64,000 nucleotides of DNA from a virus (Duplodnaviria; Caudoviricetes). Below the pieces are notes generated by a model. That model saw only the letters and a program-made list of their open reading frames with translations. It ran no database searches and was not told the origin of the DNA. Below, one piece after another: positions 4,059 to 32,246 of this stretch. A program made the position numbers and the translations under genes. The DNA lies in IMG/VR virus record IMGVR_UViG_2934965791_000001, positions 35,285-99,284 of that record; one strand, given 5' to 3'. The first letter of the stretch is position 1. Each line of letters starts with the position of its first letter.

Positions 4059-4101
4059 GCGGACTCCGCAGGCAGAGAGGGTGATCGGGGGGGACGGCCG
4101 G

Positions 4102-5483: not shown

Positions 5484-5512
5484 GGGCGGTCACCTCCTCC
5501 AGTGCCGGCGGG

Positions 5513-5875: not shown

Positions 5876-5959
5876 GCCTGCTCCAATCAGGGGGTGAGGG
5901 AAGAGGGCCGACCGCGGGCCGGGGCCCCGCACCACGTGCGGGGCCCCGACGCGGGGCGG

Positions 5960-9130: not shown

Positions 9131-9504
9131 CAGCTACTCCGTGGGGTGATACGGCGCGCCGAGCCCTGCGGCGACCAGCCGGTGACGCGCCCTGACTTGT
9201 AGAGCTGCCAGGCGTGTTCGTCGAGGACCGCGCCGATCAGCCAGTCGCCGGCCTTGACGACGACGTCGCCGAGGTTCCAGTCCGGGCCGCGGTAGATGTA
9301 CGACTCGACGACCTTCGCGGCGCCCTCGGTGCCGTCGGCGTGGAACAGCCCGGTCTCGGGGCCGTTCTGGAGGAACCGCCATGCGGCCTTCTCCAGCTCC
9401 GCGGCGGAGAAAAAGTCACGGCCGCCATCCGCACCCCGCTTGATCATGGGGTCGGGGCCGGCCTGGTAGGCGACGCCGAGCACGTAGCGCTGCTCGTCGG
9501 GCAT
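9130..9504 (-). CDS. XkdF-like putative prohead serine protease
   Basis: 'RYVLGVAY...ELEKAAWRFL...VVESYI...GDWLIG...VTGWSPQG'; ATG at 9504. Confidence 0.7.
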   Translation of the reverse strand: MPDEQRYVLGVAYQAGPDPMIKRGADGGRDFFSAAELEKAAWRFLQNGPETGLFHADGTEGAAKVVESYIYRGPDWNLGDVVVKAGDWLIGAVLDEHAWQLYKSGRVTGWSPQGSARRITPRSS

Positions 9505-12610: not shown

Positions 12611-13045
12611 TCAGGCGCCGGTGGTCCAGTGGGCGGGGACCATGCGGGCCACGAGGGGGTCGTCCATCGGTTCCGGGTCCGGGACTTCGGGGGTGCAGTC
12701 GCAGTCCGGAAGGTCCGCGGGGTTCGGCGCCGTGCACGTGCAGGCGTGGATGAGGGATGCGCCGTCGAGGCTGATCGCGTGGTCGACGCAGGCGTAGACG
12801 GTGCGGGTCATGCCGTCGCCGGTGGGGAGCGGCCCGAAGTCGGGCGCCGGAAGCTGCGGGTCGGCCAGGAGGAGGAGCTGTTCGCGGCGCAGCAACTCGG
12901 TCTTGATGACCTCGGTGACCTCGTCCGCGGTGGGCCGGCGTGCCCAGTTCACGGCCGCCAGTTCGCCGCAGGCCGCGCAGAACGGGCCGGTCGAGACGAC
13001 CGGGGCCGGGGTGGGCGCCGGCGGGGCGTCCTCGTCCGTGGTCAT
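12611..13045 (-). CDS. Hypothetical Cys-rich protein
   Basis: ATG at 13045; CAAC, CVDH, CTC, CDC motifs. Confidence 0.55.
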   Translation of the reverse strand: MTTDEDAPPAPTPAPVVSTGPFCAACGELAAVNWARRPTADEVTEVIKTELLRREQLLLLADPQLPAPDFGPLPTGDGMTRTVYACVDHAISLDGASLIHACTCTAPNPADLPDCDCTPEVPDPEPMDDPLVARMVPAHWTTGA

Positions 13046-13098
13046 GGGGAACCGTGCGGGGACATGGGGCGGGAGGGACAGCACGCGCGGCTCCAGGG

Positions 13099-13419
13099 TC
13101 AAGTCACGGCGAGTTGCCCGACGTTCATGACGGGCTGCTCGGGGTTGTCGGTGATGCGGAGCCACACGGCGTACCGGCCGGCGGCGAGCACGGGCCCGTT
13201 GCTGCCGGGGCCGGCCAAGACCTGGGCGCGGTAGGAGTTGCTGCCGGGGATGGGGTCGATGCCGTCCCAGCCACCCGTGAACCAGGTGGTGGGACGGGCT
13301 CCGATCGCGGTGAACGCGAACTCGACGACGTCCGCAGTCGGGTTGTACGGCTGGCCGGCCACGGTGACGTCGACCATGGCCTGCACGTACTGCCGTGAGT
13401 CGCGGTCGATGCCCTGCAC
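13099..13419 (-). CDS. Small beta-rich virion protein (BppU/Ig-like, tentative)
   Basis: GTG at 13419; 'AGRYAVWLRITDNPEQPV'. Confidence 0.5.
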   Translation of the reverse strand: MQGIDRDSRQYVQAMVDVTVAGQPYNPTADVVEFAFTAIGARPTTWFTGGWDGIDPIPGSNSYRAQVLAGPGSNGPVLAAGRYAVWLRITDNPEQPVMNVGQLAVT

Positions 13420-13427
13420 GGGGCCCC

Positions 13428-17008: not shown

Positions 17009-18631
17009 TTAGGGCTGCTGGCCGCGGAAGCGGGCGTCACGCATGCGCTTGCGGATGGCGGCCGGGTCCTCCGTCAGGGCGTCCCACGGGTCGACGATCG
17101 GCGCGTCCGTGACCGCCTCCGGGGCGGCAGGCGGTTCGGGTACGGCCGTCCCTTCGGCCTTCGCCCGGTAGTGGTTGATCCACGCGTGCGCGCCGGTCTG
17201 GTCGAGGAGGAGGTACGCCAGGGCCTGGCTGGTCGCGTCGACCATGTCGTCATGTGCGGCGTTCGGGAACGCCGCCGCCTCGTCGATGAGTTCGTCGGGG
17301 TCGAACAGCGCGATATCCGTCTCCGGCACGAACGCGTTGCCAGCCTCCAGGACCGGGGAGACGGCGTTCGCCCGGGCGTACTTCGACTCGGTCGGCGTGA
17401 CCGCGATGATCCCGGGGATTTTGCTCTTGAGGGTCGAGATCACGGCGGTGCCGTTCGCCTTGTCCTCGACCAACTTCGCAGTGGCCTGCGGCCAGCGCCG
17501 CACCATCGCCTCGAACGCGGCGAGGGTGTCCGTGAAGCTGAGTCGCTTACGGATCTGGTCGAGGAGGTAGACGTTCGCACCCTTGCGGGCCCAGACCTGG
17601 CCGACGACGTAGTCACTCGACTTCGTGTCCTTGAAGGCCATGTCCCAGCTCATGATCAGCTGGTCGAACTCGTCGACGCGGTATGCCTCGGCGGCCGCGG
17701 CGGCCTGCGACCACAGCGGGACGCCGTAGCGGCGCCACCACTGCCGCTTCCAGACGTCACCGGCGGTCGGGGACGGCCGGCCCTGGTAGAGGCTGGTCCA
17801 GGTGCGACTACCGACGTCCTGCCGCGTGTCTTCCCAGTCCTTCGGCGTACGGCCGCGGGACGAGACGAGGTATTCGCCGGGGGCACGACCGAGGGCGTCG
17901 GTCTGCCCCTTGTTCGGGTCGTGGTCGGCCTGTGCCGGCACGTTGATGTGTCGCCACTCGCCGCGCACGTCTTGGGCAAGGAGCCGGCCGGCGAGGTCGT
18001 CTTCGTGCCATCGGGTGAGTACGACGATGACGACGGTGTCCGGGCCGAAGCGGGTACGGGCGGTGTCGGTCCAGAAGTCCCACACCCGCTCGCGGAACAC
18101 GAGCGACTCGGCCTGGGCGCGGTCCTTGATCGGGTCGTCGATGATGAGGATGTCGACGGGCCGGCCGGTCAGGGCGCCCTGGACGCCGACGGAGTAGACG
18201 CCGCCGGCGTGGTCCTGGATCTGCCACTCGGCCGCCGACGCGGTGTCCCGGCTGATCCGCAGCCCGAACTTGTCGGGGTTCGATGCGATGTCGTTTCGGA
18301 TCGCGCGGCCCCACCGTCGGGCGGTGCCGAGTTCGTACGACGCGATAGCGATTCGCTTGTCTGGGTCGCGTGCGAGCACCCAGGCCGGGAAGGTGCGTGA
18401 TACCCGCTGGCTCTTGCCCTCCTGCGGGGGCATGGTCCAGATGAGGCGCCTGGTGCGGCCCTCTGCGGCGTCGATGAGGTTCTGGTCGAGGAGCGCGAGC
18501 GCCGGCGTCAGGACGATGCGGGGGTCGAGTTCCCGGGCGAGGTCGTGTGGGGTCGGGTAGCGGTCGACGGCGTCGCTACGTCCTTCGAGCCGGTCGGCGG
18601 CGAGTGCGAGCGCGTCCATGTCGCTGGACAC
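17009..18631 (-). CDS. terL: Terminase large subunit
   Basis: Walker A 'MPPQEGKS', Walker B 'ILIIDDPIKD', 'TRWHEDDL', nuclease 'SWDMAF...EDKANG...HDDMVDA'. Confidence 0.95.
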   Translation of the reverse strand: MSSDMDALALAADRLEGRSDAVDRYPTPHDLARELDPRIVLTPALALLDQNLIDAAEGRTRRLIWTMPPQEGKSQRVSRTFPAWVLARDPDKRIAIASYELGTARRWGRAIRNDIASNPDKFGLRISRDTASAAEWQIQDHAGGVYSVGVQGALTGRPVDILIIDDPIKDRAQAESLVFRERVWDFWTDTARTRFGPDTVVIVVLTRWHEDDLAGRLLAQDVRGEWRHINVPAQADHDPNKGQTDALGRAPGEYLVSSRGRTPKDWEDTRQDVGSRTWTSLYQGRPSPTAGDVWKRQWWRRYGVPLWSQAAAAAEAYRVDEFDQLIMSWDMAFKDTKSSDYVVGQVWARKGANVYLLDQIRKRLSFTDTLAAFEAMVRRWPQATAKLVEDKANGTAVISTLKSKIPGIIAVTPTESKYARANAVSPVLEAGNAFVPETDIALFDPDELIDEAAAFPNAAHDDMVDATSQALAYLLLDQTGAHAWINHYRAKAEGTAVPEPPAAPEAVTDAPIVDPWDALTEDPAAIRKRMRDARFRGQQP

Positions 18632-19744: not shown

Positions 19745-20052
19745 TCTCGGCTCCGCTGGTTGAGGCGGAGCATGCGAACCCGGCGGTCACCGATGTTCAG
19801 GGCCGTCGAGACGGCGCCGAGGTCGCCCTTCATCGCGGCGCCCCACACAGCGGCTTGGAGCCGGTCGAGGCGTAGCACCTCAAGGACCCGGAGCGGGTCC
19901 ATGGGCATCCCGTCGAACTGGGTGTCGGCGGCCGCGGTGGCGGCGTCGAGGGCATCGGCGGCGTCGGCGTAGTCGAGCTTGTCGGCGATGGTCTGCCAGT
20001 CGACGCCGGCGAGGCGGAGGGTGAGGGCCTGGACGGCGCGCTCGTCGGACAC
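19741..20052 (-). CDS. HTH DNA-binding protein
   Basis: 'ALTLRLAGVDWQTIADKLDY'. Confidence 0.6.
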   Translation of the reverse strand: MSDERAVQALTLRLAGVDWQTIADKLDYADAADALDAATAAADTQFDGMPMDPLRVLEVLRLDRLQAAVWGAAMKGDLGAVSTALNIGDRRVRMLRLNQRSRE

Positions 20053-20069
20053 GGCGGGCCTCCGTGATG

Positions 20070-20125
20070 GGGAAACGCCCGCGGCCCGCTCCCCCGGTGT
20101 CGGGGGGCGGGCCGCGCGGGCGGGG
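20070..20125 (-). terminator. Intrinsic terminator
   Basis: Long GC hairpin followed by TTT on the minus strand after the 86-aa ORF. Confidence 0.55.
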
Positions 20126-20136
20126 CTGTTCGGTTG

Positions 20137-20397
20137 TCAGTAGGTGCCGAGGCGGGGTCCGTAGTCCTCGCCGGTCAGCTCCCGGTACCGCTTGCACGCC
20201 TCGATGTAGATCGCGCCCTCTTTGAAGCGCATCCGGGCCGGGCTGCCGCCGACGCGGTCGAGGACCGTGCGGAACGTGTCGAGGTCGGGGGCGTCGGCGG
20301 CGGTCATACGGCGCAGGGCGGCATAGTCGGGGTTCGCGGCGATGCCGTTACGGCTCGGCCGACGGGTCCCCATCGTCAGTTCGCGGGCGCGTCCCAT
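20137..20397 (-). CDS. Hypothetical protein (outlying member of the TGTAGCTACA regulon)
   Basis: 86 aa; GGGAG RBS; own promoter and terminator. Confidence 0.6.
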   Translation of the reverse strand: MGRARELTMGTRRPSRNGIAANPDYAALRRMTAADAPDLDTFRTVLDRVGGSPARMRFKEGAIYIEACKRYRELTGEDYGPRLGTY

Positions 20398-20425
20398 CGC
20401 AATTCTCCCTGTTCAAGCTGCTGTC

Positions 20426-20465
20426 GTGTAGCTACAGCTTGGGGGAGGATCGGGCGGCTTCTCAA
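20426..20465 (-). promoter_or_regulatory. Promoter with a single TGTAGCTACA box
   Basis: Minus strand TTGAGA-N18-CAAGCT-GTAGCTACAC. Confidence 0.65.
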
Positions 20466-22030
20466 GCCGCTTCGGGGAGTTCTTCGGCCTCGGAAAACGC
20501 CTCGTCGACGCCGTCGGGAAGGTGCACGTCGACCTCGCCGCATGCCTTCGTGGCCTCGGCCCGGTTGCCCTTGCAGAACACGATGAAGTCCTGGTGGGTA
20601 CGGGCGAGACCGCGGGTGCCGGCGAAGGTGCGGCCGGCCATGACGGCGGCCGTACCGACGGGGCTGACGAGGACGGCACCGGAGGCGTAGGTGAGGCCAG
20701 CCGCGACGCCGGCCCGGATGGTGGAGCCGCGGAGGTCGTGGAGGGCGCCGCGGTTGTCGCGGGCGTCGCCGGTGACGAACACGGCGAACCGGTTCGGCTT
20801 CAGCGCCCGGGTGACGCCGGCGATGATCCGCGCGTACACCTCGTCGAACCCGTCGTACGACATGGAGGACAGGTCAGCGGGGTTCTCGCTGTACTCCTCA
20901 AGGTCGTAGTACGGCGGGCACGTGAACACCATGTCGGCACTGTTCGGTTCGAGGGTCTTCACCCACTCCGCGCTGTCGCCGATCGTCCAGGAGGGGTCGG
21001 CGGCCAGCATCCGGCGGTTCGTGAACTCGTCGCGCTGCTCACGGTTGCTCTCGACCTGCTCGGGGCGGAGGTCGTTGCCGCGGTACGGACGGCCGAGGAT
21101 GCCGGCGACGATGCCGCGGACGGATCCGCCAGCGAACGGGTCGAGGATCGTGCCACCGGCCGGGGAGAACCAGCGGTACGCCAACTCGCACAGGACGGGA
21201 TCGAACACGGACGTTCCGGAGGCAACCGCGTCGTCCGGGCGAACGTAGTGGTCGGCCTCGAACTCCGCCGACGTCAGCGGCCGGCCGAGCGCCTGCTCGA
21301 CGGCCCGCTTCTTGTCGTAGTACTTCGGGTCGGCCTTCGCCATGCCCTCGAAGACGAGGTTGTCGCCGCGTCCGACTTCGGACCGCATGCCGAGGGACAG
21401 CCACTGTCGCTTGCGGGTGCGCCACCATCCCTGGCGGGCGTCGAGGACGTCGAACGGCGGGATGAGGAACCGGTCCGCGAGGGTGGGGTTCTCGGCCGGC
21501 TCGTCGTCGGCGGCGCCGTCGCCGCTGGAGTCGTCGCCGAGGTCGTCGAGGTCGGGCGGGGTGATGAGCGCCATGACCTCGTCGTCGCTGTAGCCGGTGC
21601 CCTCGTGGTCGCCGTCGAGGTAGGAGAGGAGTTCGGCAAGCGCGTCGTTGTCGTACCCGCCGAGTTCGGCCAGCCGGTTGTCGGCGATGTTAATACGCCG
21701 GGCCTCGTCGTCGTCGCAGACGATGATCTCGCAGCGGGCGGTCGTACCGTCCCACGCGCCGCCGGCACACATCGCGCACGGGTGCTTTTCGTCGTCGGCG
21801 TACTGGCACCGGTCAGGGCCATGCAGTTGCAGGGCCTGCATGGTGTGGTTGCCGGCGAGGACGATGAGCGGGCCGCCGGGGATCTTCCGGACGACGAGGC
21901 CGCGGTACTGGCCGTTCCGGCGGAGGCTCTTGAGGATCTCGGGCGGGTTGCCGCGCTTGGCGTTACCCGGGAACGGGGTCAGTTCGTCGAGGGGGACGTC
22001 TCGGGTCTCAACGTAGACGGCGCCGGGCAT
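20462..22030 (-). CDS. ParB-like domain fused to an amino-DNA methyltransferase
   Basis: 'PFPGNAK...VLAGNHT...IADNRLAE' ParB/Srx; 'ILDPFAGGSVRG' SAM motif; 'TCPPYY' catalytic motif. Confidence 0.85.
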   Translation of the reverse strand: MPGAVYVETRDVPLDELTPFPGNAKRGNPPEILKSLRRNGQYRGLVVRKIPGGPLIVLAGNHTMQALQLHGPDRCQYADDEKHPCAMCAGGAWDGTTARCEIIVCDDDEARRINIADNRLAELGGYDNDALAELLSYLDGDHEGTGYSDDEVMALITPPDLDDLGDDSSGDGAADDEPAENPTLADRFLIPPFDVLDARQGWWRTRKRQWLSLGMRSEVGRGDNLVFEGMAKADPKYYDKKRAVEQALGRPLTSAEFEADHYVRPDDAVASGTSVFDPVLCELAYRWFSPAGGTILDPFAGGSVRGIVAGILGRPYRGNDLRPEQVESNREQRDEFTNRRMLAADPSWTIGDSAEWVKTLEPNSADMVFTCPPYYDLEEYSENPADLSSMSYDGFDEVYARIIAGVTRALKPNRFAVFVTGDARDNRGALHDLRGSTIRAGVAAGLTYASGAVLVSPVGTAAVMAGRTFAGTRGLARTHQDFIVFCKGNRAEATKACGEVDVHLPDGVDEAFSEAEELPEAA

Positions 22031-22060
22031 GCGTGGGTCTCCCGTGAGGGGTCGGGGAAC

Positions 22061-22090
22061 GAAGAAGCCCCGGCCACAAGGGCCGGGGCG
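22061..22090 (-). terminator. Terminator after the tRNA
   Basis: Minus strand GCCCCGGCCCTTGTGGCCGGGGC-TTCTTC. Confidence 0.6.
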
Positions 22091-22097
22091 GATTCTG

Positions 22098-22168
22098 CAG
22101 GATCGGCAGGAATCGAACCTGCACTTGCGGTTTTGGAGACCGCTGCTATCCCGTTGAGCTACGACCCC
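22098..22168 (-). tRNA. trnW: tRNA-Trp (CCA)
   Basis: Acceptor GGGGTCG/CGATCCT; anticodon arm GCGGT-CTCCAAA-ACCGC; T arm GCAGG-TTCGATT-CCTGC; no encoded CCA end. Confidence 0.9.
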
Positions 22169-22215
22169 ATGAGGGCGGGCCCCGGCCGAGGAGTCGGCGG
22201 CCGGGGCCCGCGGGG

Positions 22216-22545
22216 TCAGCCCTGGGCGGGAGCCGTGGACGGCTCGACCTGCTCCGGGGCCGGGGTCGGGTCGGCGGCGTCGACGGCAGCCTTGATCTCC
22301 CCGACGACCTTGCCGAGTTCGGCGATGACCGCGGTGACGACCTCGTCCTTCACCTTGTCCAGCTCGGGGACGAGCGTGGCGACCAGGCTCTTGACGAACG
22401 CGTCGAGTTCATCGCGGCCGCCGCCGATCAGGTGGCCGAACTTGTCCTTGACCTCGTCGACCAGGTCGCGGAACCGGCCAGCGAGGTTGTGTCCCTCGTC
22501 CTCCAGGTCGGTGACGACGTGCTCGAACTCGTCGATGAGCGACAT
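22216..22545 (-). CDS. Hypothetical protein
   Basis: ATG at 22545 after GGAGG; acidic helical sequence. Confidence 0.65.
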   Translation of the reverse strand: MSLIDEFEHVVTDLEDEGHNLAGRFRDLVDEVKDKFGHLIGGGRDELDAFVKSLVATLVPELDKVKDEVVTAVIAELGKVVGEIKAAVDAADPTPAPEQVEPSTAPAQG

Positions 22546-22592
22546 GCGGGTGCCTCCGGTGGCGATACGGGGTGGGGTGGTGGGGAGGGGTC

Positions 22593-22784
22593 CTACGCGC
22601 ACCGGGCGCAGGGGAGCTTGCGGTGATGCCGCTCGCAGCTGTCGTCACGGGCCGGCTCGTACCGCGGGGCGGTGCCGAGGAAGCCGTGCATGGCCGCGGT
22701 CTGTTGACGGGCGGTGCGACGGGATACGGCGCGACGCTCGGCGCGGGTTCCGCGCGGCTTGTATCCGACGGGAAGGGACGGCAT
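22593..22784 (-). CDS. Small basic Cys/His protein
   Basis: ATG at 22784 after GGAG; 'CERHHRKLPCARC'. Confidence 0.45.
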   Translation of the reverse strand: MPSLPVGYKPRGTRAERRAVSRRTARQQTAAMHGFLGTAPRYEPARDDSCERHHRKLPCARCA

Positions 22785-22909
22785 GAGTAGCTCCCGGGGA
22801 GGGGTGAGGGGATGCCGGCCGCCGCGCACCCCTCAATGCGTGACGGCCGGCAGCAGAAGACCCCGCCGGAAACGTTCGTCCGCGCGGGGTCTGTTCGGGG
22901 GGCCGGCGG

Positions 22910-23110
22910 TCAGACGCCGGCGAGGAGGGGGGTGCGCTTCGGGGGCACCTTCACGGCGCCGGTGGCGACGTCGCGCACTTCGAGGTAGTCGTATCGGCCG
23001 CCGTAGGAGGTGATGCGGCCCTCGGCCGCCCAGCGGGTAACCGTGCCCTTCGGCTTGCCGATGAGGTGGGCGATGTCCGACGGGGAAAGAAGGACGGGGC
23101 GGTACGTCAT
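22910..23110 (-). CDS. Small HTH (excisionase/MerR-like) protein
   Basis: 'LSPSDIAHLIGKPKGTVTRWAAEGRI'; GGGAGG RBS. Confidence 0.7.
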   Translation of the reverse strand: MTYRPVLLSPSDIAHLIGKPKGTVTRWAAEGRITSYGGRYDYLEVRDVATGAVKVPPKRTPLLAGV

Positions 23111-23230
23111 CGGCGGTGCTGCCTCCCAGAAACGCCGAAGGGCCGCCCGGCGGGGGCGGCCCTTTCGACAACATTCTCAAGACTGGCAGGACTATGACTC
23201 ACTCAGGCCGGTGAAGTCAAATCGGTGTCG

Positions 23231-23896
23231 CTACACGGCGACGGGGGCGCCGTCAGCCGGGGCGTGGCAGCCATGGCCGTGGCCGTGGTGCTGGCCCTGG
23301 TGGTTCCTATCGTGGTCGTGGTGGTGCCGGCCTCCGCCATCGTGCCCGTGACCGGCGCCCGGCGTGCCCGGCCTGCGGTGCCGGCCGTCCGGGCGCTTCC
23401 ACTCGTCGCGGTCGCCCTTGTCCTCCGCCGCCGGCTTGTCCGGCCTGCGGTGCTTGCCAGTGCCCGGGTCCGCCGGCGTGACGGTGAAAGTGTGCACCTG
23501 GACCGGCTTGACGGCCGGCTCCCAGCTGCCGGCGGCCGTCCGGGTCTTCGGCTCGTCCGCCGTCGTGGTGAGGGTGTCCACGGCGGCCGGCGGCTCCGGG
23601 TCAGCCTCGGTGGGGTCGCGGGACTTGTCGGGGCTCCCGTACACGGCCTCCGCCCGGCCCGTGCACAGACCCAAGATGGCCGCGAGGGCGCCGAGGGCCA
23701 GGAGGGCGCGCATGGTCACGCTGCCGGTGACCGGGAGCGGCCTGGGCGCGGCATGCCTACCCGCCGCCGGCTCGGCCGGCAGTTCGACGTCCGCGACTCG
23801 GATCGTCAGAGTCGACGCGTCGTCAGTGACGAGCGTCAGATGGGAGGCGCCGCGGCGGCTGTTGCGGAGTCGCGGGGTTGCTCCGTCGGTAGACAT
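23231..23896 (-). CDS. Hypothetical membrane-anchored protein with His-rich tail
   Basis: Hydrophobic 'ALLALGALAAILGL'; His/Gly-rich C-terminus. Confidence 0.5.
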   Translation of the reverse strand: MSTDGATPRLRNSRRGASHLTLVTDDASTLTIRVADVELPAEPAAGRHAAPRPLPVTGSVTMRALLALGALAAILGLCTGRAEAVYGSPDKSRDPTEADPEPPAAVDTLTTTADEPKTRTAAGSWEPAVKPVQVHTFTVTPADPGTGKHRRPDKPAAEDKGDRDEWKRPDGRHRRPGTPGAGHGHDGGGRHHHDHDRNHQGQHHGHGHGCHAPADGAPVAV

Positions 23897-23950
23897 CGGA
23901 GAGCGGTCCTCACGGGCCAGGCGCCTGCGCGCGGTTGAGAGGGGAGGGTG

Positions 23951-25021
23951 TTAGATCCAGGCGCCGTAGACGCCAGCGGCCGTGAATCCGGGGCCGAAGG
24001 CGATGAGGGCGCCGGGCGATCCGGGGGCGGGAGGATCGTCGTGGGTACGGGCAAGCACGTCCAGGACTGCGGTGCCGCCAAGGTTGCCGTTCTCTGCGAG
24101 TGAGGCGTGCGAGTACCGGCCGGCTTTCTCCGCGAGGCCGATGCTGGTTACGACGTCGTCGATGATGCGCGGGCCGCCGGGGTGGACGATCGCCCACTCG
24201 GGCCGGCGTTTGCCGAGCCAGTCGGTGATGTAGGGGACGGCGTCGGTAGCCGCGGCGGCCGCCTTCCGGGTCGAGTCGAAGTGCAGGCCCTCGTCGTCGA
24301 TGGTGCCCCAGTAGCGGTCACGCGAGTTGGGCATGACAAGTTCGAGTGGGTCGAGGGCGACGAACCCCGTCGGCAGGTCGGCGGAGGTCTCGTCGGTGAG
24401 GCCGGTGACGACGGCCGCGCCGGCGGAGTCACCGAACAGCGCGCGGTACATCATCGACTGCGGCGTGGTCTCCGACTCGTGGTAGATGGTCGACAGGGTC
24501 TCAGCGACGACGACGAGGACGCGGGCGCCGGGCCGGGCAAGGGTGTGCCACAGAGCGTGGACGAGGCTCTGGGCGCCGCCGACGCAGGCGAGGGTGGACA
24601 GCCCTATGCGGGTCACGGTCGGGCGGAGACCGAGACGCTCGATGAGGTGCACGTCCATGCCGGGCACGGTCCAGCTTGTGGTGTGGCTGGTGACGATGGC
24701 GTCGACGTCGCCGGGGTCGAGACCGGCGACGTCGAGCGCGTCGCGGGCGGCGGACTCGGCGAGGTCGAGAGCGTCGCCGAACGCCACCCCCGCGCGGTGT
24801 CCCACGCTCGACGGGGCGGTGGCCTCCTGAAGGGGCCGGGTCCAGTACCGCTGTTCCACGCCGGTGTTGCGGATGAGGCGTTTCCACAGGCCGAGGCGCG
24901 GGTGCGGCTTCGTCGGGTCGTCGGCGTCCCGGCAGGTGGCGGCGATGTGGTCGAGGAGGGCATCGGTGGTGACGCGGTGGGCGGCGAGCCGTATGACGGG
25001 TCTACCGATGTGCGCAGGCAC
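23951..25021 (-). CDS. Type III polyketide synthase (chalcone synthase-like)
   Basis: Cys-His-Asn triad motifs 'LACVGG', 'VHPGG', 'GNLGG'; also 'ALFGDSAGA' and 'AFGPGFT'. Confidence 0.9.
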   Translation of the reverse strand: MPAHIGRPVIRLAAHRVTTDALLDHIAATCRDADDPTKPHPRLGLWKRLIRNTGVEQRYWTRPLQEATAPSSVGHRAGVAFGDALDLAESAARDALDVAGLDPGDVDAIVTSHTTSWTVPGMDVHLIERLGLRPTVTRIGLSTLACVGGAQSLVHALWHTLARPGARVLVVVAETLSTIYHESETTPQSMMYRALFGDSAGAAVVTGLTDETSADLPTGFVALDPLELVMPNSRDRYWGTIDDEGLHFDSTRKAAAAATDAVPYITDWLGKRRPEWAIVHPGGPRIIDDVVTSIGLAEKAGRYSHASLAENGNLGGTAVLDVLARTHDDPPAPGSPGALIAFGPGFTAAGVYGAWI

Positions 25022-25113
25022 GGGTACCTCCAGCGGGCGTGTGTGGTGGGGCGTAGAGATCAGAGGGCCGCGGGCAGAATCGGGGGCTGCCCGGCGGCTG
25101 GTGTCGCGGCGGG

Positions 25114-25959
25114 TTACGAACCGCCGTAGCGGGCGCGGAGCGGCGGGCGAGTGTCCGGCCGTTCAGGGCCCGGGTCGAAGATCATGAGCATGGTCACGAA
25201 CCGGGGGGACGACCTCGGTATCGAGGTGTGCAGGGTCATCCACCCGGGGCCCTCCTCCGGGTGATTGAACGGCCGGGTGGCGCCGTCGGGGTGTACGAAG
25301 ATCGGCCCGAAGTCCTGGTAGATGGGGCCGGCCTCCTCGTCGGCGAGGATCTGCCGCTCCAGGTTGATGAGGTATTCGTCATCCGGGTGCGCGGCCCGGG
25401 CGGCCCAGACGTGCGGGGCGACGAACGGCGCCCACGAGTTCTTCCAGTCGCCGAGGATGTACCGGGCGTCCGGGGAGAGCAGCATCCACTCCATCGTGTT
25501 CGGGGGGACCCGATGGCCGGGGAAGATGCGCGGGAGGTGGACGTTGTGGGCGACGACCTCCCAGCGGTGGTTGGTGAGGTAGGCAGGGTGCGGCTGGCCG
25601 TCGAGGACCCGGGACCAGGATGCGGGGATCTCCTCGTCGGTGTCCGGGCGGAGCGGGTACGGAGGGTCGCGGCGCCAGGTCATGTTCCACAGCCACACCC
25701 ACTCGTGCGGGTTGAGGTCGAACAGCTCACCGACGCCCTTGAGGACGTGTTCGGGGGCGTTGGGCAGGCGTCCGTTCTCCAGGCGCTCGTACGTGCCGCG
25801 GCCCACGCTGAGGATGTCGTCGACCTGGGTCTGCGACAGGCCTCCGCCGGCCGGGCGGCGCCCCGCGCTGCGCGTGAAGCCGTAGTCGCTGGGATTGAGT
25901 TCGGCCCTGCGCCGCTGGAGCAGGATCCGAAGCCCCTCCTTGAGGGCACCCTGTTGCAC
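25114..25959 (-). CDS. XRE-family HTH plus MmyB-like ligand-binding regulator
   Basis: 'LQRRRAELNP...GLSQ...YERLENGR' HTH; 'PAYLTNHRWEVVAHN' MmyB-type PAS-like domain. Confidence 0.85.
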   Translation of the reverse strand: MQQGALKEGLRILLQRRRAELNPSDYGFTRSAGRRPAGGGLSQTQVDDILSVGRGTYERLENGRLPNAPEHVLKGVGELFDLNPHEWVWLWNMTWRRDPPYPLRPDTDEEIPASWSRVLDGQPHPAYLTNHRWEVVAHNVHLPRIFPGHRVPPNTMEWMLLSPDARYILGDWKNSWAPFVAPHVWAARAAHPDDEYLINLERQILADEEAGPIYQDFGPIFVHPDGATRPFNHPEEGPGWMTLHTSIPRSSPRFVTMLMIFDPGPERPDTRPPLRARYGGS

Positions 25960-26356
25960 TGTCGTTCTCCCGAGATCAATCTGAGCCGAGGCTCATCATC
26001 ACTGATTTCCGGCTGGCATATGCCTGCGAGATTTGCAGGCAAATACCGTCGAGGGCCTGCGGTCAGCTCTGTGTGATCGCTACGACTCCGCTCCGCGCGG
26101 TGTTCACGCAGGCCCGGGAGCCACTTTCGGGCAACCCGGGCGAGAGCTGGGCTCTCGGATATCGCGGCGGTCGATAGCGGCACCCGGCAAGGGCGTCCAC
26201 TTCGCCGATCATTGCGATTTGAACAGTCTACGCGCGTTGCTAGTGATCATTTACTGACGCCTTTTTAGGTGTCCTTTACATTCGCCGCTCCCATAAGTGC
26301 GACGGGCGCCTAGAAGGACCCCCGAAAAGTGAGCGTTTCTCACGTCCCGGGGACTG

Positions 26357-26806
26357 TCACCGCTGCACCTTCGCCGTCGCGGCCGTGGTGATCGTGGGGT
26401 TCACCTGAACGTCGACACGGATGCTGCCCCCTCCTCCCCCACGACCGCCGCGGCCGCGCGCCAGTACGCCGCCGACGACCATGCAGCCGAGGAGCAGACC
26501 GAGCCCGGTCTCCGCCGCGGCAAGGGCATCGAGGAGAAACGATCCGCCTACCCCGAGGCCGACGGCGAGGACGCCGCCGGCCGCCATCTTCTGCGCGGTC
26601 GGGTCGATGCCGCGCCGCTCGACGACGGCCGGCGCCGGCGCGTCGGGGGCGGCCGCCATCGCGTACCCGGTCACGACGCGGCCGTCGGGCAGCAAGACGG
26701 ACTGAACCGCCGGTACGCCGGCGGCGGCGTACGGGACGACGGCGCCGGCGGCCGGCGCCGAGTAGACGACGGCCGGCACGGCGGCCTGCTGCTGCTCGGG
26801 GATCAC
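26357..26806 (-). CDS. Spd-like membrane protein
   Basis: Two hydrophobic helices; GTGA-coupled to the TraB stop. Confidence 0.55.
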   Translation of the reverse strand: MIPEQQQAAVPAVVYSAPAAGAVVPYAAAGVPAVQSVLLPDGRVVTGYAMAAAPDAPAPAVVERRGIDPTAQKMAAGGVLAVGLGVGGSFLLDALAAAETGLGLLLGCMVVGGVLARGRGGRGGGGGSIRVDVQVNPTITTAATAKVQR

Positions 26807-28752
26807 TGGTGCTCCTTGGGGTCGTTCGCGTAGTACCGGGTGGAGCGGCCGTCACGGCGGCCGGCGACGCCGTGCTTCTCCCACTCCTCGATCGCGCGCG
26901 TGGCCGTGTCGCGGGAGATCCCGCAGGCCGCGGCGAGTTCCTTCTTCGTGGCCGATCCGAGTGCCTGGAACTGCTCCCACAGGTCCGGCCACTGCCCGGG
27001 CTGGACGTGGTCGCCGTTCGGGAACCGCAGGGGTGCGAACTGCTCCACCCACGGCTCATCCGTGATGGCCGGCTGCTGCTCGGTGTCCGCCTTCTCCGAG
27101 TAGTAGAAGCCGACGTCGTCAGCGATATCGAGGTCGGAGACGTACTCGGCCCGGTACACCTTCGGCTCGGTCAGCTCCGGCGTCTGGAGCATGAACTTGC
27201 CGGGCAGGTCAAGCGTCTCCGGCCGCCAGCCCTTCGTCTGGCAGCCGGCCCCGAACACGAACGGGGCGTGGCCGGACTCGCCGGCGCGGGTGGACAGGCG
27301 GTTGGCGTAGTTACCCCGTGCGTCGGTCGACCCGCCGAAGACCTTCCGCGACGGCTGCTGGGTGGCACTGACGAAGTGGATGGCCAGGAACCGGGCGATG
27401 GCCAACAGGGACTCGTACAGGGCGGCAAGCTCGGGATCCTGACGGACGAGTTCGCCCAGCTCGTCGCAGAACACGAAGATGGCCTTGCCGTGGACGCCCG
27501 GCACCCACTTGCGGACCGGGCCCTTACCCTCCGCCATGCGTTTGCGGGTCAGCTCGGCGAGGATCTCGCCGCGCCGGTCGCACTCGCTGCGGATCCACAT
27601 CAGCAGCGCGCGGGCCTGCTCCGGGGTCTTAGCCACGGGGGCGGCCATGACCGGCTCCCACGGGCCCAGCTCGGGCGCGCCGGGCTTCATGTCGATGCCG
27701 TACAGGTCGGCGTCGAGGCACCGGTTCAGCCGCTTGATGATCAGGTTGACGATGCCGGACTTCCCCCAGTCCGAGGCGCCGGCGATCAGGGTGTGCCGGT
27801 ACATGAGGGTGAGGTGGACCGGCTTGCCATCCTCGTCGGCGCCGAGGAGCACGGGCTCCCGGCAGGTGGTCACCCCGGTCTCGGTCAGCGGCAGCGTGCC
27901 GGCGAGCGCGTCCACGGTGGACAGCTTCACGACCAGCTGATTGTCGGCCGGGCCCTGGGCGAGGGTGAGTTTGCCCGGCATGCCGAGGTTCGCGGCCAGC
28001 TGGACCCGCCGGGCGATGATCGCGGCCGGCGCGGTGGTCTTACCCGGGGGCATGGCCACGATCGCGGACCAGCCGTGTTCGTTGCGGTGGAACGCCATGA
28101 CGTCCTGCGGGGCCGCGCCGGTGAGGGCGTGGATGGCGCGGCGGAGCGCGGTCTCCTCCGGGGACGCTCCGATCAGGCCCGGGTCAGCAGCCTCCAGCCC
28201 GAGGGCGTTGGGCAGGGCGCCCTTCGCCTTGACGGTGTCGATGTTCAGCTTCATGCGGGCGTTGCGCTGCGCGGTCAGCCATGGCCCGTAGATCCAGTAC
28301 GTCAGGCCGGTGGTCAGGGCCCACGCGGTCGCCGACTCGGGACCGGGGCCGAACGCGGTCGCGGTGGCTATGTCGCCCAGAGCCACGGTGAGGCCGGCCG
28401 CGGCCTGCGTGACCGGGGCGTTCTTGTGCTTGAGGCCGAGCACGGCCGCGGTCGCGGCGACGCCGGCGAGCGCCCCGTACGACAAGGTCGGGCCGATGCC
28501 CTCCTGCCACCAGCCGAGCAGGGACAGAGTGGAGGTGCCGGCCACGGGTGCCAGTTCGTAGCGGCGGCGGGAGACCCAGTCACGGGTGTGCACCAGCCAG
28601 CCGACGCAGCGCACCACGAGGGGCCTAGATGACGACGACGATGACGACGACGACGCAAAACCCCTGGTCAGACGGTACGTCGTCGCGTCGGCCGTCTTCG
28701 TCGTCATCGGCTCGGGGACATAGACGCGGGGCTCGGTAGGGGTCTGCGTCAT
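26803..28752 (-). CDS. traB: TraB-like FtsK/SpoIIIE conjugative DNA translocase
   Basis: N-terminal TM helices; Walker A 'GASDWGKS'; Walker B 'VFCDELGEL'; 'ATQQPS'; C-terminal wHTH. Confidence 0.85.
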   Translation of the reverse strand: MTQTPTEPRVYVPEPMTTKTADATTYRLTRGFASSSSSSSSSRPLVVRCVGWLVHTRDWVSRRRYELAPVAGTSTLSLLGWWQEGIGPTLSYGALAGVAATAAVLGLKHKNAPVTQAAAGLTVALGDIATATAFGPGPESATAWALTTGLTYWIYGPWLTAQRNARMKLNIDTVKAKGALPNALGLEAADPGLIGASPEETALRRAIHALTGAAPQDVMAFHRNEHGWSAIVAMPPGKTTAPAAIIARRVQLAANLGMPGKLTLAQGPADNQLVVKLSTVDALAGTLPLTETGVTTCREPVLLGADEDGKPVHLTLMYRHTLIAGASDWGKSGIVNLIIKRLNRCLDADLYGIDMKPGAPELGPWEPVMAAPVAKTPEQARALLMWIRSECDRRGEILAELTRKRMAEGKGPVRKWVPGVHGKAIFVFCDELGELVRQDPELAALYESLLAIARFLAIHFVSATQQPSRKVFGGSTDARGNYANRLSTRAGESGHAPFVFGAGCQTKGWRPETLDLPGKFMLQTPELTEPKVYRAEYVSDLDIADDVGFYYSEKADTEQQPAITDEPWVEQFAPLRFPNGDHVQPGQWPDLWEQFQALGSATKKELAAACGISRDTATRAIEEWEKHGVAGRRDGRSTRYYANDPKEHQ

Positions 28753-28755
28753 GGT

Positions 28756-29097
28756 TCAGGCCGCCTTCGCGGGGGTGTTGAGCATGGTGAGGCCGGCGTC
28801 GCTGAGCCGGTCGAGGACGCGCAGGGCGCCCTCGATGGCGTGTCCGATGCCGGCCAGGAGGATCCGGGTGGTGGCGGCGACCACGAGGGTGGCGGCCACC
28901 AGCGTGCGCGCCGGCGGGAGGTCCAGGGCCCGGGCCAGACCGAGGACGCCGGCGGTGTAGGTGACGGCCCAGGTGAGGACCACCGGGGGCGCGAGCGGTC
29001 CGGGGATGCAGGCGACGGCGTGTGCGAAGAGGAAGGCCGCCAGCACAGCGGCCGTGGTGATCGCGGCGAGGGTGAACCGGTCGTCGGTGCTGCGCAT
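28756..29097 (-). CDS. Spd-like membrane protein
   Basis: 113 aa, hydrophobic; in the traB operon. Confidence 0.55.
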   Translation of the reverse strand: MRSTDDRFTLAAITTAAVLAAFLFAHAVACIPGPLAPPVVLTWAVTYTAGVLGLARALDLPPARTLVAATLVVAATTRILLAGIGHAIEGALRVLDRLSDAGLTMLNTPAKAA

Positions 29098-29128
29098 GGC
29101 GGGTCTCCTTCTGGTCAGTTGGGGCGGG

Positions 29129-30265
29129 TCAGGAACCGGTGAGGGCGGTCACGTTGGTCGAGCCGAGGGCCGCCAGATTCGGCTTCTTCGCCTCCAGTTC
29201 GCCGCGCAGCTTGTTCGCGTGCTGCCGGGACGTGAACCGGTACTTGATCTCCTTGAGGCGGTCGACCATCTCGGACTCCAGGGGGCGGCGTCCGAGTTCG
29301 CCGTAGAGCGCCTCGATAGCGGTCTTCGCGTCGGCGCGGGTGACCTTCCCGGGGCGCTTCGGGAGCGTCTTGCGGGGCGCCTTCACCGTGCTGGTCGGGG
29401 CGCTCTGGGGCGCCGTCGGGGCGGGGGCCTGGGGCGCTCCGGGAGCGCCGGTCGGAGCGCTCTGGGGCGCTCCGGGAGCGGGCGCCGGGGCGCTCTGGGG
29501 TGCCTTGGTCAGCGACACCGGAGCGGGGTTCGGGGCGCTCTGGGGCGCCGCTGAAGCATGGGTTGGGGGCGCCTTCGGAGCGGGCACCGGAGCGCTCTGG
29601 GGCGTCGCCGGGGACGTCGCGGGAGCGGCGGCCGGGGCGCTCTGGGAGCGGGTGTCGGAGCGCTCCGAAGGCGCTCCCGCAGCGGCGTTCTGGGCGGCCT
29701 GCTGGAGCGGTTCCGGGAGTTCCAGGCCGAGCACGTACGCCCGCAGGATGGCCCAGGTGCCCTTCCGGTCGAACACCCACCGGAGCGGGTGGAGCCGGGG
29801 TGCGGTCCGTCCGTTGCGGCGGGCGGCTGCGGCGCGGGCCTCGGACATCAGACCCTCGAAGAGGATCACCGCCGACGGCGGCATGCACGACGCCACGATC
29901 CGGCCGAGGTCGTCGTCGATGTGCTCGTAGTTGATCCACGAGGACAGGCCCGTGAAGGCGACGATGAGGAGGCGCCACACCGTGGCGGGCCGGCCGTGGG
30001 TCGCGGCCCGGGCCACGACGATGGACAGGCCGGCGGGGGCGCCATCGAACGTGATGGGCACCAGCCACGCCGTGGAGCGGCTGAGGTCCATGTGTTCCAT
30101 GCCGAACTGGTGCAGGCCGATGAAGGACGCTGCCCAGCCGGAGGCGGCGACGACCAGGACGAGGGCGAAGCCGAAGCCGCCGAGGCCGGTGTCCCGGGCC
30201 CAGAGGGCCGCGTCGCGGACACGTTCGGTCCACCGGGCGCGGGTACTGGGCATGTTCGCGGGCAA
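29129..30265 (-). CDS. DUF2637/SpdB-like membrane protein with PQSAP repeats
   Basis: Four TM helices ('AWLVPITFDG'); 'PRLHPLRW'; repeated APQSAP linker. Family name is tentative. Confidence 0.65.
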   Translation of the reverse strand: MPANMPSTRARWTERVRDAALWARDTGLGGFGFALVLVVAASGWAASFIGLHQFGMEHMDLSRSTAWLVPITFDGAPAGLSIVVARAATHGRPATVWRLLIVAFTGLSSWINYEHIDDDLGRIVASCMPPSAVILFEGLMSEARAAAARRNGRTAPRLHPLRWVFDRKGTWAILRAYVLGLELPEPLQQAAQNAAAGAPSERSDTRSQSAPAAAPATSPATPQSAPVPAPKAPPTHASAAPQSAPNPAPVSLTKAPQSAPAPAPGAPQSAPTGAPGAPQAPAPTAPQSAPTSTVKAPRKTLPKRPGKVTRADAKTAIEALYGELGRRPLESEMVDRLKEIKYRFTSRQHANKLRGELEAKKPNLAALGSTNVTALTGS

Positions 30266-30303
30266 GGTGGGCGCTCCTTCGGTGAGGGGGGTCGACGGGG
30301 CGG

Positions 30304-30480
30304 TCAGTCGAGTGGGCGGACGGTGACGTCGAGGTTCCGCGGGTCGGTTTTCGCGGCCTCCACGCGCTGGTTGAGGTCGGTGCGGCTGTAGACCGTCACG
30401 GCGTCGTGGTCGGCGCCCGTGATCTGGTTAACGGGGTCGCCGGTGCGGGACCGGGCGGACAGTTCCCACTTGCTCGTCAT
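30304..30480 (-). CDS. Small hypothetical protein, first gene of the transfer operon
   Basis: ATG at 30480 after GAGGAG; 58 aa MTSKWELSARSRTGD...; below the ORF-track cutoff. Confidence 0.55.
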   Translation of the reverse strand: MTSKWELSARSRTGDPVNQITGADHDAVTVYSRTDLNQRVEAAKTDPRNLDVTVRPLD

Positions 30481-30500
30481 GCCGGGCTCCTCAGAGTTGA

Positions 30501-30571
30501 GGTTGTACTACTCAGAAGTACAACCCTGGGTAAAAAAAGAGGGAGTCAGTTGTACGACTCAGTTGTACAAC
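30501..30571. promoter_or_regulatory. Two GTTGTAC-N9-GTACAAC operators upstream of the transfer operon
   Basis: 30502-30524 and 30549-30571, separated by an A-tract. Confidence 0.75.
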
Positions 30572-30618
30572 GTACTCCGGGTCCGATGAACCGTCAACCG
30601 TTGCGACAATCGGGGGAG

Positions 30619-30873
30619 TTACTCAGCCGGCGGCACGTCGCGCACGTTCGGCTGGTCGGCGCGGGCGCGCCGCCACTGTTCGATCTTCGACTTTCGCCAG
30701 CTTGGGGTACGCCCGAAGCTCTTGTCGGGCTCGGGTAGATCGGCATCGGTAGCGATGCCGGCCGCACGGCGCTGGTTCGCCCGGCTGTTGTAGGTACGCA
30801 GGGTTCCGGGCCGCACGCCGATCAGTTCCGCCACCTCGTCCATGTCGAGCAGCGGGTCATCCTGGTCGGTCAC
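30619..30873 (-). CDS. AlpA/MerR-like HTH regulator (Kor-like candidate)
   Basis: 'LLDMDEVAELIGVRPGTLRTY...LPEPD...GRTPSW'. Confidence 0.75.
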   Translation of the reverse strand: MTDQDDPLLDMDEVAELIGVRPGTLRTYNSRANQRRAAGIATDADLPEPDKSFGRTPSWRKSKIEQWRRARADQPNVRDVPPAE

Positions 30874-31001
30874 GTTGCGCCCTTTCCGTCGTCGTCCACC
30901 TGAATGGGACAACCGTAGCGCCGGGCGGTCGACGGAGAGTAGCGAGTCGAGTCTCATCACACCTCCTTTCGATCAGTGGAACAGGGCTACACCTCTGGAG
31001 C

Positions 31002-31024
31002 GTTGTACATCTGAGTTGTACAAT
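31002..31024. promoter_or_regulatory. Third GTTGTAC-N9-GTACAA operator
   Basis: gttgtacatctgagttgtacaat between the HTH gene and the replication gene. Confidence 0.7.
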
Positions 31025-31199
31025 CCCGCAAGCGTCGCAGGTCAGAAGGCCGGGCGCGAGAAAACGAAAGGCCGCCGGGGTGGAGCCCGACGGCCGATCG
31101 AAGTAGCGGCGGGGTGGTGCCCGCCATGACGTCCCTGCGAAGGAACACGAAGATGGTACTGAACTACGCCGCCGGCGCGCACCCATCGACGGTGACCCG

Positions 31200-32246
31200 G
31201 TGAGCCTGGACCCGATGCTGTGGGCCCTCAAGGACGCCCCCGTCGCCGACACCCTTGAGCGGGTCGTTCTGGTCACGCTCGCCGAGCGGTGCGCCCGGGC
31301 CGACGGCTGCACGGCGTTCCCGTCGCGCGACACGATCGCGGAGACCGCCCTCGCCGACCCGAAGACCGTGCAGCGCGTGCTGCGCCGGCTGGAGACCCGG
31401 GGCCTTATCGGCAAGGGCGACCAGTCCGCGGCCCGCTACCTCCGCGCCGACCGCCGGCCGACCGTCTGGGACCTCCTGATCCCGTACTCGTGGTTCCCGA
31501 ACCCGGAGCGGATGAACGCCGAGCGCGCCCAGGCGGGCCTGCCTCCGCTGACGCGGGCCGACCGCCCCGACATCGAGTCGGCGCCGGAGCGGAAGAAGCG
31601 CGCCGACGCGGGAAAGACCAGGTCAAAGGCACGGGGGGATTCACAGTCCCCTCGTGACGAGGGGGACGGGGGGACTACCAGTCCCGAACGGGGGGACTAT
31701 GAGTCCCACACGGGGGGACTTGAAGCCCCCCGAACCTCCCCTAAGAACCTCCCCTCTGATTCCCCCCTCCTGGACGCCGCGCCGACGCCGGCCACGCCAG
31801 CCGCCGCGGTGGTGCCGGACGAGGTAGGGGGAGAAGACCCTTCAACGACAGACGACCCCGCTACCGCCTTCGTCGACGCCCTCCCCTACGGCCGCCAGGT
31901 GCCGAACCGTTCCACCCGGGAACGCCTCATCACCCGGACCCGGGACGCGTACGCCGCCGGCTGGACCCCGCTCGCCTTGAAGCGCCACCTCACCGACGAC
32001 ACCCGCAGCGCGAAGTCTCTGGTGGCCGTGTACCTGCACCGCCTCGCCGAACTCCCGGACCCGAAGGCCGTGGTCGCGTCCGTCGCCGCCGATGCGACGT
32101 ACACGCCGCCGACGTACAACGCACCGGCCGCGCCCGACGCCGTCCCGCCGAACGTCGCGCTGGCGGCCGCCCGGGCCGCGATGCGTGAGGCCCGCGACGG
32201 TCGGGCGCGCGGCCGGGATCACCGCCCGTGGATGCCGACCGACTGA
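31200..32246 (+). CDS. wHTH replication initiator (replisome organiser-like)
   Basis: 'RVVLVTLAE...AFPSRDTIAE...TVQRVLRRLETRGLI'; internal iterons. Confidence 0.7.
   Translation: MSLDPMLWALKDAPVADTLERVVLVTLAERCARADGCTAFPSRDTIAETALADPKTVQRVLRRLETRGLIGKGDQSAARYLRADRRPTVWDLLIPYSWFPNPERMNAERAQAGLPPLTRADRPDIESAPERKKRADAGKTRSKARGDSQSPRDEGDGGTTSPERGDYESHTGGLEAPRTSPKNLPSDSPLLDAAPTPATPAAAVVPDEVGGEDPSTTDDPATAFVDALPYGRQVPNRSTRERLITRTRDAYAAGWTPLALKRHLTDDTRSAKSLVAVYLHRLAELPDPKAVVASVAADATYTPPTYNAPAAPDAVPPNVALAAARAAMREARDGRARGRDHRPWMPTD
31632..31730 (+). repeat. Four iterons CGGGGGGA(C/T)T-N3-AG(T/C)CCC, putative origin
   Basis: Copies at 31632, 31667, 31689, 31711; the last three have a 22-bp period. Confidence 0.75.

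Follow-up and report, generated by a model that had tools for sequence, protein, structure and literature searches.

A diverged vioAB-type regulator and polyketide synthase pair, probably an accessory cassette of a large temperate Streptomyces phage

Why would a tailed phage carry a gene for a polyketide synthase (PKS) of type III directly behind a gene for a regulator of the MmyB family? The question is raised by a 64,000-nucleotide stretch of viral DNA (Duplodnaviria; Caudoviricetes), called the window below, which covers positions 35,285 to 99,284 of IMG/VR record IMGVR_UViG_2934965791_000001. A first-pass annotation of the window proposed that synthase and regulator could give the element a diffusible signal controlling lysis, transfer or host development, and allowed that the pair might instead be cargo. 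We find that accessory cargo fits better, and that the pair is already characterised in print as vioAB. Our reading, which we hold to be likely, is that the two genes are a vioAB-type two-gene accessory cassette on a large temperate phage of Streptomyces that is related to phage-plasmid-like replicons of 97-99 kb, and that the cassette acts as a local circuit. The vioAB cassette itself is thus not new; what is new here is a diverged copy of it in a second phage lineage. Its parts are as follows.

26019-26043, no strand assigned: candidate operator, the palindrome TTTGCCTGC-N7-GCAGGCA(T/A)A, ~60-85 nt upstream of the regulator start codon
25994-25999, minus strand: ATGATG block, 19 nt downstream of the palindrome and conserved in a 7-locus alignment
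25114-25959, minus strand: XRE/MmyB-family transcription regulator, VioB homologue, 281 aa (Pfam, fold model)
25022-25113, minus strand: spacer of 92 bp separating the regulator from the PKS; a GGAGG ribosome-binding site stands ahead of the PKS start
23951-25021, minus strand: type III PKS, homologue of the VioA/Cpz6/Gcs-like alkyl-pyrone synthases, 356 aa (Pfam, alignments)

Both open reading frames named by the first-pass annotation are present at exactly these coordinates, and the PKS does lie directly downstream of the regulator on the same strand. The PKS scores above the cut-off of 27 bits with Chal_sti_synt_N (72.8 bits) and with Chal_sti_synt_C (34.9 bits), and its 356 residues carry no extra domains. 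With the NCBIfam DpgA model it reaches 85 bits, far under that model's cut-off of 425, and it is therefore a diverged type III PKS. The catalytic triad had been called intact and it is: C146, H280 and N313 are invariant in a 31-sequence family alignment and align with the catalytic motifs of Gcs (3v7i) and THNS (1u0m). Among solved relatives Gcs ranks first (138.7 bits with the single sequence, E 2.3e-77 with the family profile), THNS second and Pks11 third. Gcs shares the triad with the window enzyme and differs from it in having an N-terminal extension and in being encoded by a chromosomal gene. No terminator was called after the PKS gene, and folding of 23700-23960 gave a z of -1.83 without a clear hairpin. 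Control through bldA was ruled out, there being no in-frame TTA codon in either the PKS or the regulator gene.

The regulator combines an N-terminal XRE helix-turn-helix (HTH) with a C-terminal MmyB-like ligand-binding domain, and both Pfam matches are above their cut-offs (MLTR_LBD 51.6 bits against 26.3, 1.5e-13; HTH_31 27.9 bits against 27, 3e-6). A GGGAG ribosome-binding site precedes its start. An AlphaFold model built on a 26-sequence alignment has a mean predicted local distance difference test score (pLDDT) of 88.8, and its top Foldseek match, over the full length, is MltR, 3pxp (E 6e-8, 283 aligned columns, template-modelling (TM) score 0.44), followed by PAS domains; identity between the model and MltR is only 16-17%. 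The modest TM-score and a root-mean-square deviation of 16 A from 3pxp suggest that the two domains are differently set. MltR and MmyB, the latter from the methylenomycin cluster, share with the window protein an XRE-type HTH and a PAS-like ligand domain. That MmyB-family proteins have a PAS-like ligand pocket, as the first-pass annotation held, agrees with the literature, where the PAS-like domain family has been crystallised with bound fatty acid (MltR) (PMC3406030). VioB-type regulators belong to the MmyB family with its lipid-binding-type pocket; the word MmyB is absent from PMC4924298, where VioB is called only an XRE-family regulator, and a limited literature search combining MmyB with "type III polyketide synthase" returned no paper.

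The 92-bp spacer is poorly conserved in the 7-locus alignment save for the ribosome-binding site and start region of the PKS, and no promoter-like or terminator-like site was called in it; from this we infer that the regulator and the PKS are co-transcribed.

A two-gene cluster of this makeup is known from Streptomyces somaliensis SCSIO ZH66, where the violapyrone cluster consists of vioA and vioB only, on a circular plasmid of ~85 kb (PMC4924298; PMC5898002). VioA, of 350 aa, has an identity of 95% with pCQ3.110c, and VioB, 272 aa long and named an "XRE-family regulator", one of 94-95% with the regulators of pCQ3 and pCQ4; knockout of vioA abolished violapyrone B, and knockout of vioB raised it about eightfold (PMC4924298). 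Because VioA was compared through pCQ3.110c as a 95%-identical stand-in, the figures that follow refer to pCQ3: the window PKS is 50% identical to pCQ3.110c over its full length (E 2e-114), and the window regulator is 41% identical to the HTH protein adjoining it (E 4e-71). VioA groups with Cpz6, DpyA and Gcs, pyrone-forming enzymes with fatty-acid-derived starters (PMC4924298; PMC5898002). In VioA, the substitutions I174A and Y229A cut production severely, S242A abolished it and L190I made no change (PMC4924298; PMC5898002). The corresponding residues of the window PKS are I179, Y237, S250 and L195; all four are conserved, and Y237, L195 and S250 are invariant in the 31-sequence family alignment.

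Is 50% identity enough for the same chemistry? VioA itself is only 53% identical to Cpz6 (PMC4924298), and violapyrone B is presulficidin A, the sulfate shuttle of the caprazamycin pathway that holds Cpz6 (PMC4924298; PMC5898002), so identity of about 50% is compatible with the same chemistry. Cpz6 differs from the window PKS in lying inside a large antibiotic cluster, and pairing with an MmyB-type regulator is described for neither Gcs nor Cpz6 in the available texts.

The likeness extends to the replicons. Like the window pair, the vio cluster joins a regulator gene to a type III PKS gene without tailoring genes on a mobile replicon, and its plasmid is most closely related to pCQ3 and pCQ4, two pZL12-like elements that have genes for capsid, tail and TraB; pCQ3 also has traA, traB, a major capsid gene and tail genes. 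Streptomyces phage ZL12, the plasmid-phage pZL12 (GQ919031), carries pZL12.100, annotated "type III polyketide synthase" and 46.5% identical to the window PKS (tblastn), preceded by pZL12.99, annotated "transcriptional regulator". Like the window element, pZL12, pSLE1 and pCQ3 (Streptomyces elements of 85-90 kb) have virion and TraB-type genes together with a regulator and a type III PKS. They differ from it in PKS sequence (46.5-50% identity) and in sharing no flanking genes with it at E 1e-8; a further difference is the integrase of the window element and its classing as a provirus. The vio cluster likewise differs in the identity of its stand-ins (only 50% for the PKS and 41% for the regulator), in its upstream motif and in its phage lineage. 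The paper on pSLE1 noted the type III PKS of pSLE1 and pZL12 as an orphan without a surrounding cluster, a prophage survey found type III PKS genes only in plasmid-borne prophages, and 21 more genomes with vioAB are tabulated in the supplements to the vio papers (PMC4924298; PMC5898002). Those tables, or the ones of PMC10023795, may already list relatives of the window element. From the homology of both proteins to the vio pair, together with these earlier notices in print, we conclude that the window pair is a diverged member of a known, characterised cassette.

If the two genes are a unit, they should be found together elsewhere. An alignment-based scan, used in place of an earlier single-protein locus search that had found only 3 loci, gave 480 relatives in contigs of one genome per species, from which the best 80 by similarity to the window protein were taken, and a further 29 in viral contigs. 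These are biased samples, in which a genome locus and a virus locus can belong to one record (e.g. L022 and L094). PKS matches came to 109 loci, 105 of them with readable upstream sequence, and in 97 of these 105 the PKS is directly preceded, on its own strand, by an MmyB-type gene at a distance of 70-567 bp (median 132); in 8 it is absent. The PKS also occurs in 50 Streptomyces plasmid records at 44-52% identity (tblastn), many of them 85-95 kb long. By hand comparison of the PKS and regulator match tables, the regulator lies within 1.3 kb of the PKS in 32 of the 50 records and at 3.6 kb in one more, and 17 have no regulator match at E 1e-30. The identity matrices of PKS and regulator correlate over 96 pairs (Mantel r 0.845, with 0 of 999 permutations as high), a correlation to which shared host ancestry contributes. 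Thus the pairing of synthase and receptor proposed by the first-pass annotation is borne out, as one functional and evolutionary unit, by these counts and by the vioB knockout alike; the further step, to control of lysis, transfer or host development, is not.

Several loci depart from the usual arrangement. Five (L007, L027, L028, L040, L046) have two MmyB-type genes round the PKS, the second one downstream on the opposite strand. In Streptomyces netropsis (L019, ~9076-9930) the regulator beside the PKS has an in-frame stop codon and may be a pseudogene or reflect a sequencing error. The 17 plasmid records without an MmyB-type neighbour are mostly large plasmids of S. anulatus, globisporus and cyaneofuscatus, and two of the 17 have an overlapping ScbR-family gene in its place. 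In NZ_CP109342.1 this ScbR-family autoregulator-binding gene convergently overlaps the PKS 3' end; with such a gene the enzyme would have a ligand-sensing partner of a second kind.

We next consider how the cassette is distributed. In a PKS tree of 110 sequences (quick maximum-likelihood search, midpoint rooting), the window lineage forms one clade (8 rows, support 100) on a long stem of 0.53, inside the family to which pCQ3 and pZL12 belong. Copies of the pZL12 type are dispersed over the tree among the others, and at least 9-11 label changes are needed to account for them; here the label "chromosomal/other" says only that a search of 10 kb around the locus at E 1e-8 found no pCQ3/pZL12 neighbour genes. 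Among the best 80 of the 480 genome loci, ~8 have pCQ3/pZL12-type neighbour genes, 3 have those of the window lineage and the rest have neither. From the scatter in the tree and the neighbour-gene counts, we conclude that the cassette travels as one unit between chromosomes and mobile elements, including at least two phage lineages. That the lineages are two follows from the large terminase subunit (TerL): compared with the TerL proteins of pZL12, pCQ3 and three pSLE1-like records, window TerL shows an identity of only 38-43%, over part of its length, which is below the identity of the PKS, so two distantly related phage lineages carry the cassette. Within the window's own lineage, six records with TerL 81-90% identical have the PKS ~6 kb upstream of TerL in the same gene order (8.9 kb in L130), and the regulator is visible in the three of them that reach far enough. 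Five records with TerL 52-86% identical have no PKS in their sequence, one of them being complete and the others 37-86% complete, and the cassette is thus accessory within the window's broader terminase group.

What, then, does the regulator control? The palindrome is the sole strongly conserved block upstream of the regulator in all seven window-lineage loci (the window and six relatives), the rest being unalignable. The window version is TTTGCCTGC-AAATCTC-GCAGGCAAA, 25 bp with one arm mismatch. A palindrome of this sort is what an XRE/MmyB dimer would be expected to read, by analogy with MmyB (PMC3406030), and the ATGATG block beside it is possibly part of the promoter. In the window the palindrome has one match at up to 3 mismatches of 23, where zero is expected by chance and none was seen in 100 shuffles. 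The whole 99-kb record has one match at up to 7 mismatches of 25, and two related genomes (9.8 and 8.4 Mb) and three related virus records have one site each at up to 3 mismatches of 21, with no matches for reversed-pattern controls in the genomes and virus records. A scan with the GC-rich half-sites alone gave many chance hits and was dropped in favour of the full 21-25-mer. No further copies stand before lysis, lysogeny, late or transfer genes, a search that degenerate sites would escape. One palindrome per element or genome argues for a self-contained circuit rather than for control of lysis or transfer, provided that the regulator does act at the palindrome; anything that the metabolite may do by indirect routes lies outside the reach of this argument. 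A concrete 25-bp operator candidate is in any case now at hand.

These observations can be joined into a mechanism in which the product class and the repression are taken from the vio papers. The PKS would most likely take a fatty-acid-derived beta-ketoacyl starter and condense it with malonyl-CoA or methylmalonyl-CoA, and the expected products would be 4-hydroxy-6-alkyl-alpha-pyrones of the violapyrone, presulficidin or germicidin kind. Germicidin is a germination inhibitor. A dimer of the regulator most likely binds the single palindrome before its own gene, and this binding we infer; from there it would probably control transcription of the regulator-PKS unit as a repressor, like VioB. It may be released by a head-and-tail, lipid-like ligand, either the pyrone or an acyl precursor, held in the PAS-like pocket as the fatty acid is in MltR and as furans would be in MmyB. 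The MmyB/MltR family recognises palindromes and has ligands with a polar head and an alkyl tail (PMC3406030), a ligand type that fits both the alkyl-pyrone product and the acyl precursors. The pyrone would then serve as a metabolite that benefits or marks the host rather than as a demonstrated phage switch, and the circuit would stay local. Weak antibacterial activity, elicitation of other clusters and signalling are possible roles for such a metabolite, all of them discussed by the vio authors (PMC4924298; PMC12113368).

Several of our observations weigh against carrying the vio results over to the window in this way. The window PKS clade is sister (95% in the Shimodaira-Hasegawa-like approximate likelihood-ratio test, SH-aLRT) to seven copies without a regulator, and from this regulator-less sister clade and the long branch it follows that orthology with vioA is not established and that the product could differ. 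In pCQ3 the regulator and the PKS stand ~340 bp apart, against 92 bp in the window, and the transcription architecture may differ. The vio/pZL12-type upstream regions lack the palindrome and have in common a different, AT-rich conserved block, and details of regulation are therefore not simply transferable. Finally, since MmyB is an activator, regulation in the window may be of either sign.

This last point leads to the alternative that the logic is the opposite one, with the regulator a ligand-dependent activator like MmyB and the palindrome an activator site beside the -35 region. MmyB does activate, recognising pseudo-palindromic boxes and responding to furan inducers (PMC3406030), the end of the palindrome 19 nt upstream of the ATGATG would suit occlusion of a -35 region or activation alike, and identity between the window regulator and the VioB-type protein is only 41%. 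MmyB differs from the window regulator in activating a multi-operon cluster with several boxes, where the window has one candidate site and one target unit. Against activation, the nearest characterised homologue, VioB, behaves as a repressor (PMC4924298); we regard activation as unlikely. A different product or role has a smaller chance still: the enzyme might make a resorcinol or naphthol scaffold, or a carrier pyrone for sulfate like the presulficidin of Cpz6. The ~50% divergence from the VioA stand-ins, the long stem branch and the rank of THNS as second-best solved relative would allow another scaffold, and the identity of violapyrone B with the sulfate shuttle presulficidin A (PMC4924298), together with a gene resembling phosphoadenosine phosphosulfate (PAPS) reductase at 38017-39255 on the plus strand, would suit a carrier. 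But the substrate-binding and cyclisation residues of VioA are conserved in the window PKS, its best solved relative is the pyrone-forming Gcs with Pks11 third, and no sulfotransferase or acceptor pathway was seen in the element. As for the gene at 38017-39255 itself, it has a PHROG PAPS reductase match (E 2.4e-14) and no Pfam match, and a link to violapyrone is probably coincidence.

The signalling module of the first-pass annotation, in which the MmyB-type receptor would sense the pyrone as a diffusible autoinducer and the pair would adjust lysis-lysogeny or conjugal transfer of the element or the development of its host, we consider improbable. In its favour, the pair of synthase and ligand sensor is tightly conserved, it keeps its position ~6 kb upstream of TerL in six related records, at the head of a co-directional block that runs into the virion operon, it is present in two phage lineages whose terminases are only 38-43% identical, and no terminator-like site was called between the PKS and a downstream BldC-like HTH gene. 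The vio authors have proposed violapyrones as possible signals by analogy with photopyrones, and silent clusters of other strains were activated by a VioA variant with low production (PMC12113368). Photopyrones, of the PpyS-PluR system in Photorhabdus, are alkyl-chain alpha-pyrones that act as cell-cell signals, a role that for violapyrones is only proposed (PMC12113368).

The photopyrone synthase is not known to be a type III PKS, and the photopyrone receptor is a LuxR solo. Against the signalling module, the 99-kb element and both related genomes have the candidate operator only once each, neighbour genes of the phage-plasmid lineages occur at only ~11 of the best 80 of 480 genome loci, records with related terminases lack the PKS (one of them at 100% completeness), and a promoter-like site precedes the downstream HTH gene. 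The vio papers report production phenotypes only (PMC4924298; PMC5898002). We found no link between the pair and the phage life cycle, and the evidence leans against a direct one. A fuller version, which we think very improbable, is an autoinducing pyrone circuit kept by two Streptomyces phage lineages: pyrone would diffuse between hyphae and release the MmyB-type repressor, and read-through that starts at the one regulated promoter and runs past the His-rich protein, BldC-like protein and tRNA-Trp genes described below, which stand shortly before the late operon, would couple element density or host lipid state to phage decisions. If it were real, such pyrone feedback on phage decisions would be the counterpart of phage communication systems with a small molecule in place of a peptide; our evidence leans the other way.

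Turning from the vioAB-type cassette to its carrier, the window has a G+C content of ~71%, typical of Streptomyces, and is the right 64 kb of a 99,284-bp IMG/VR record. All genes from ~30480 down to position 1 are on the minus strand, in the order DUF2637, FtsK/SpoIIIE, a 397-bp gap, regulator, PKS, His-rich protein, BldC-like/HTH_17 protein, tRNA-Trp, hairpin, ParB-methylase, TerL, portal fusion, head and tail genes, and tape measure. The main genes flanking the cassette are these.

29129-30265, minus strand: DUF2637 gene, upstream of the cassette (Pfam)
26803-28752, minus strand: FtsK/SpoIIIE (TraB-like) gene, upstream of the cassette (33.2 bits)
20462-22030, minus strand: ParB-methylase, downstream of the cassette
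17009-18631, minus strand: TerL, downstream of the cassette
9504-12578, minus strand: portal, a 1024-aa open reading frame with portal, NUDIX-hydrolase and head-morphogenesis (minor head protein) matches in one frame
1-1330, minus strand: tape measure, downstream of the cassette

This order agrees with the placing of the pair by the first-pass annotation between a transfer block (FtsK/TraB-like) and the virion operon, and no tailoring enzyme adjoins the pair, as it had also said. The virion gene set in the window is complete, with TerL, portal, protease, adaptor, tail and tape-measure matches, and a GH25 lysin is encoded in the rest of the record. The FtsK/SpoIIIE protein is only 23% identical to pCQ3 TraB (E 6e-7), and a megablast of window positions 20000-32000 against phage and plasmid collections gave no match.

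The description of the element as a phage-plasmid is not borne out for this copy. IMG/VR classes the record as a provirus, its left end has a tyrosine integrase and a fragment of a host-like thiamine-pyrophosphate (TPP) enzyme, and the window PKS protein is recorded from a 922-kb contig. Free replicons of ~97-99 kb do exist among the close relatives: one, a record of 97,787 bp, has direct terminal repeats and an estimated completeness of 100%, and others are whole contigs of 95-99 kb, one of them labelled plasmid. Comparison of the first 4.2 kb of the 99,284-bp record with its last 6 kb gave no att-type direct repeats of 14 bp or more, no tRNA was found at the ends of the record, and no ParA-type partition gene was found in the element at the thresholds used. 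Two HTH_36 (Rep-like) proteins are encoded in the element, at window positions 31200-32246 and record positions 4007-6148, both on the plus strand, and the former also matches a phage replication-initiation family.

Just downstream of the cassette, the product of the minus-strand gene at 23231-23896 looks secreted: it contains an internal stretch like a signal peptide (MRALLALGALAAILG...) and ends in a His-rich tail, where 13 of the final 62 residues are His. No family match was obtained for it, and its position is conserved in the lineage at an identity of only 32-51%. The best conserved neighbour of the cassette in the lineage (70-95% identity) is the 66-aa HTH_17/BldC-like DNA-binding protein encoded at 22910-23110 on the minus strand, which scores 19.6 bits with HTH_17 and 25.3 bits with BldC, both below cut-off; the promoter-like site that precedes its gene is at 23220-23191. 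Between this block and the ParB-methylase and terminase genes stand a tRNA-Trp gene (anticodon CCA, 22097-22168, minus strand) and then a G+C-rich hairpin with a T-rich tail (22089-22067). Elsewhere in the 99,284-bp record, outside the window, are a WhiB gene at 9780-10142 and, at 12690-15039, a set like those for ribosomally synthesised and post-translationally modified peptides (RiPPs), consisting of a PCMT-type methyltransferase, an MvdD-like ATP-grasp protein and an 'Actino_peptide' precursor, with a JmjC-domain protein adjoining.

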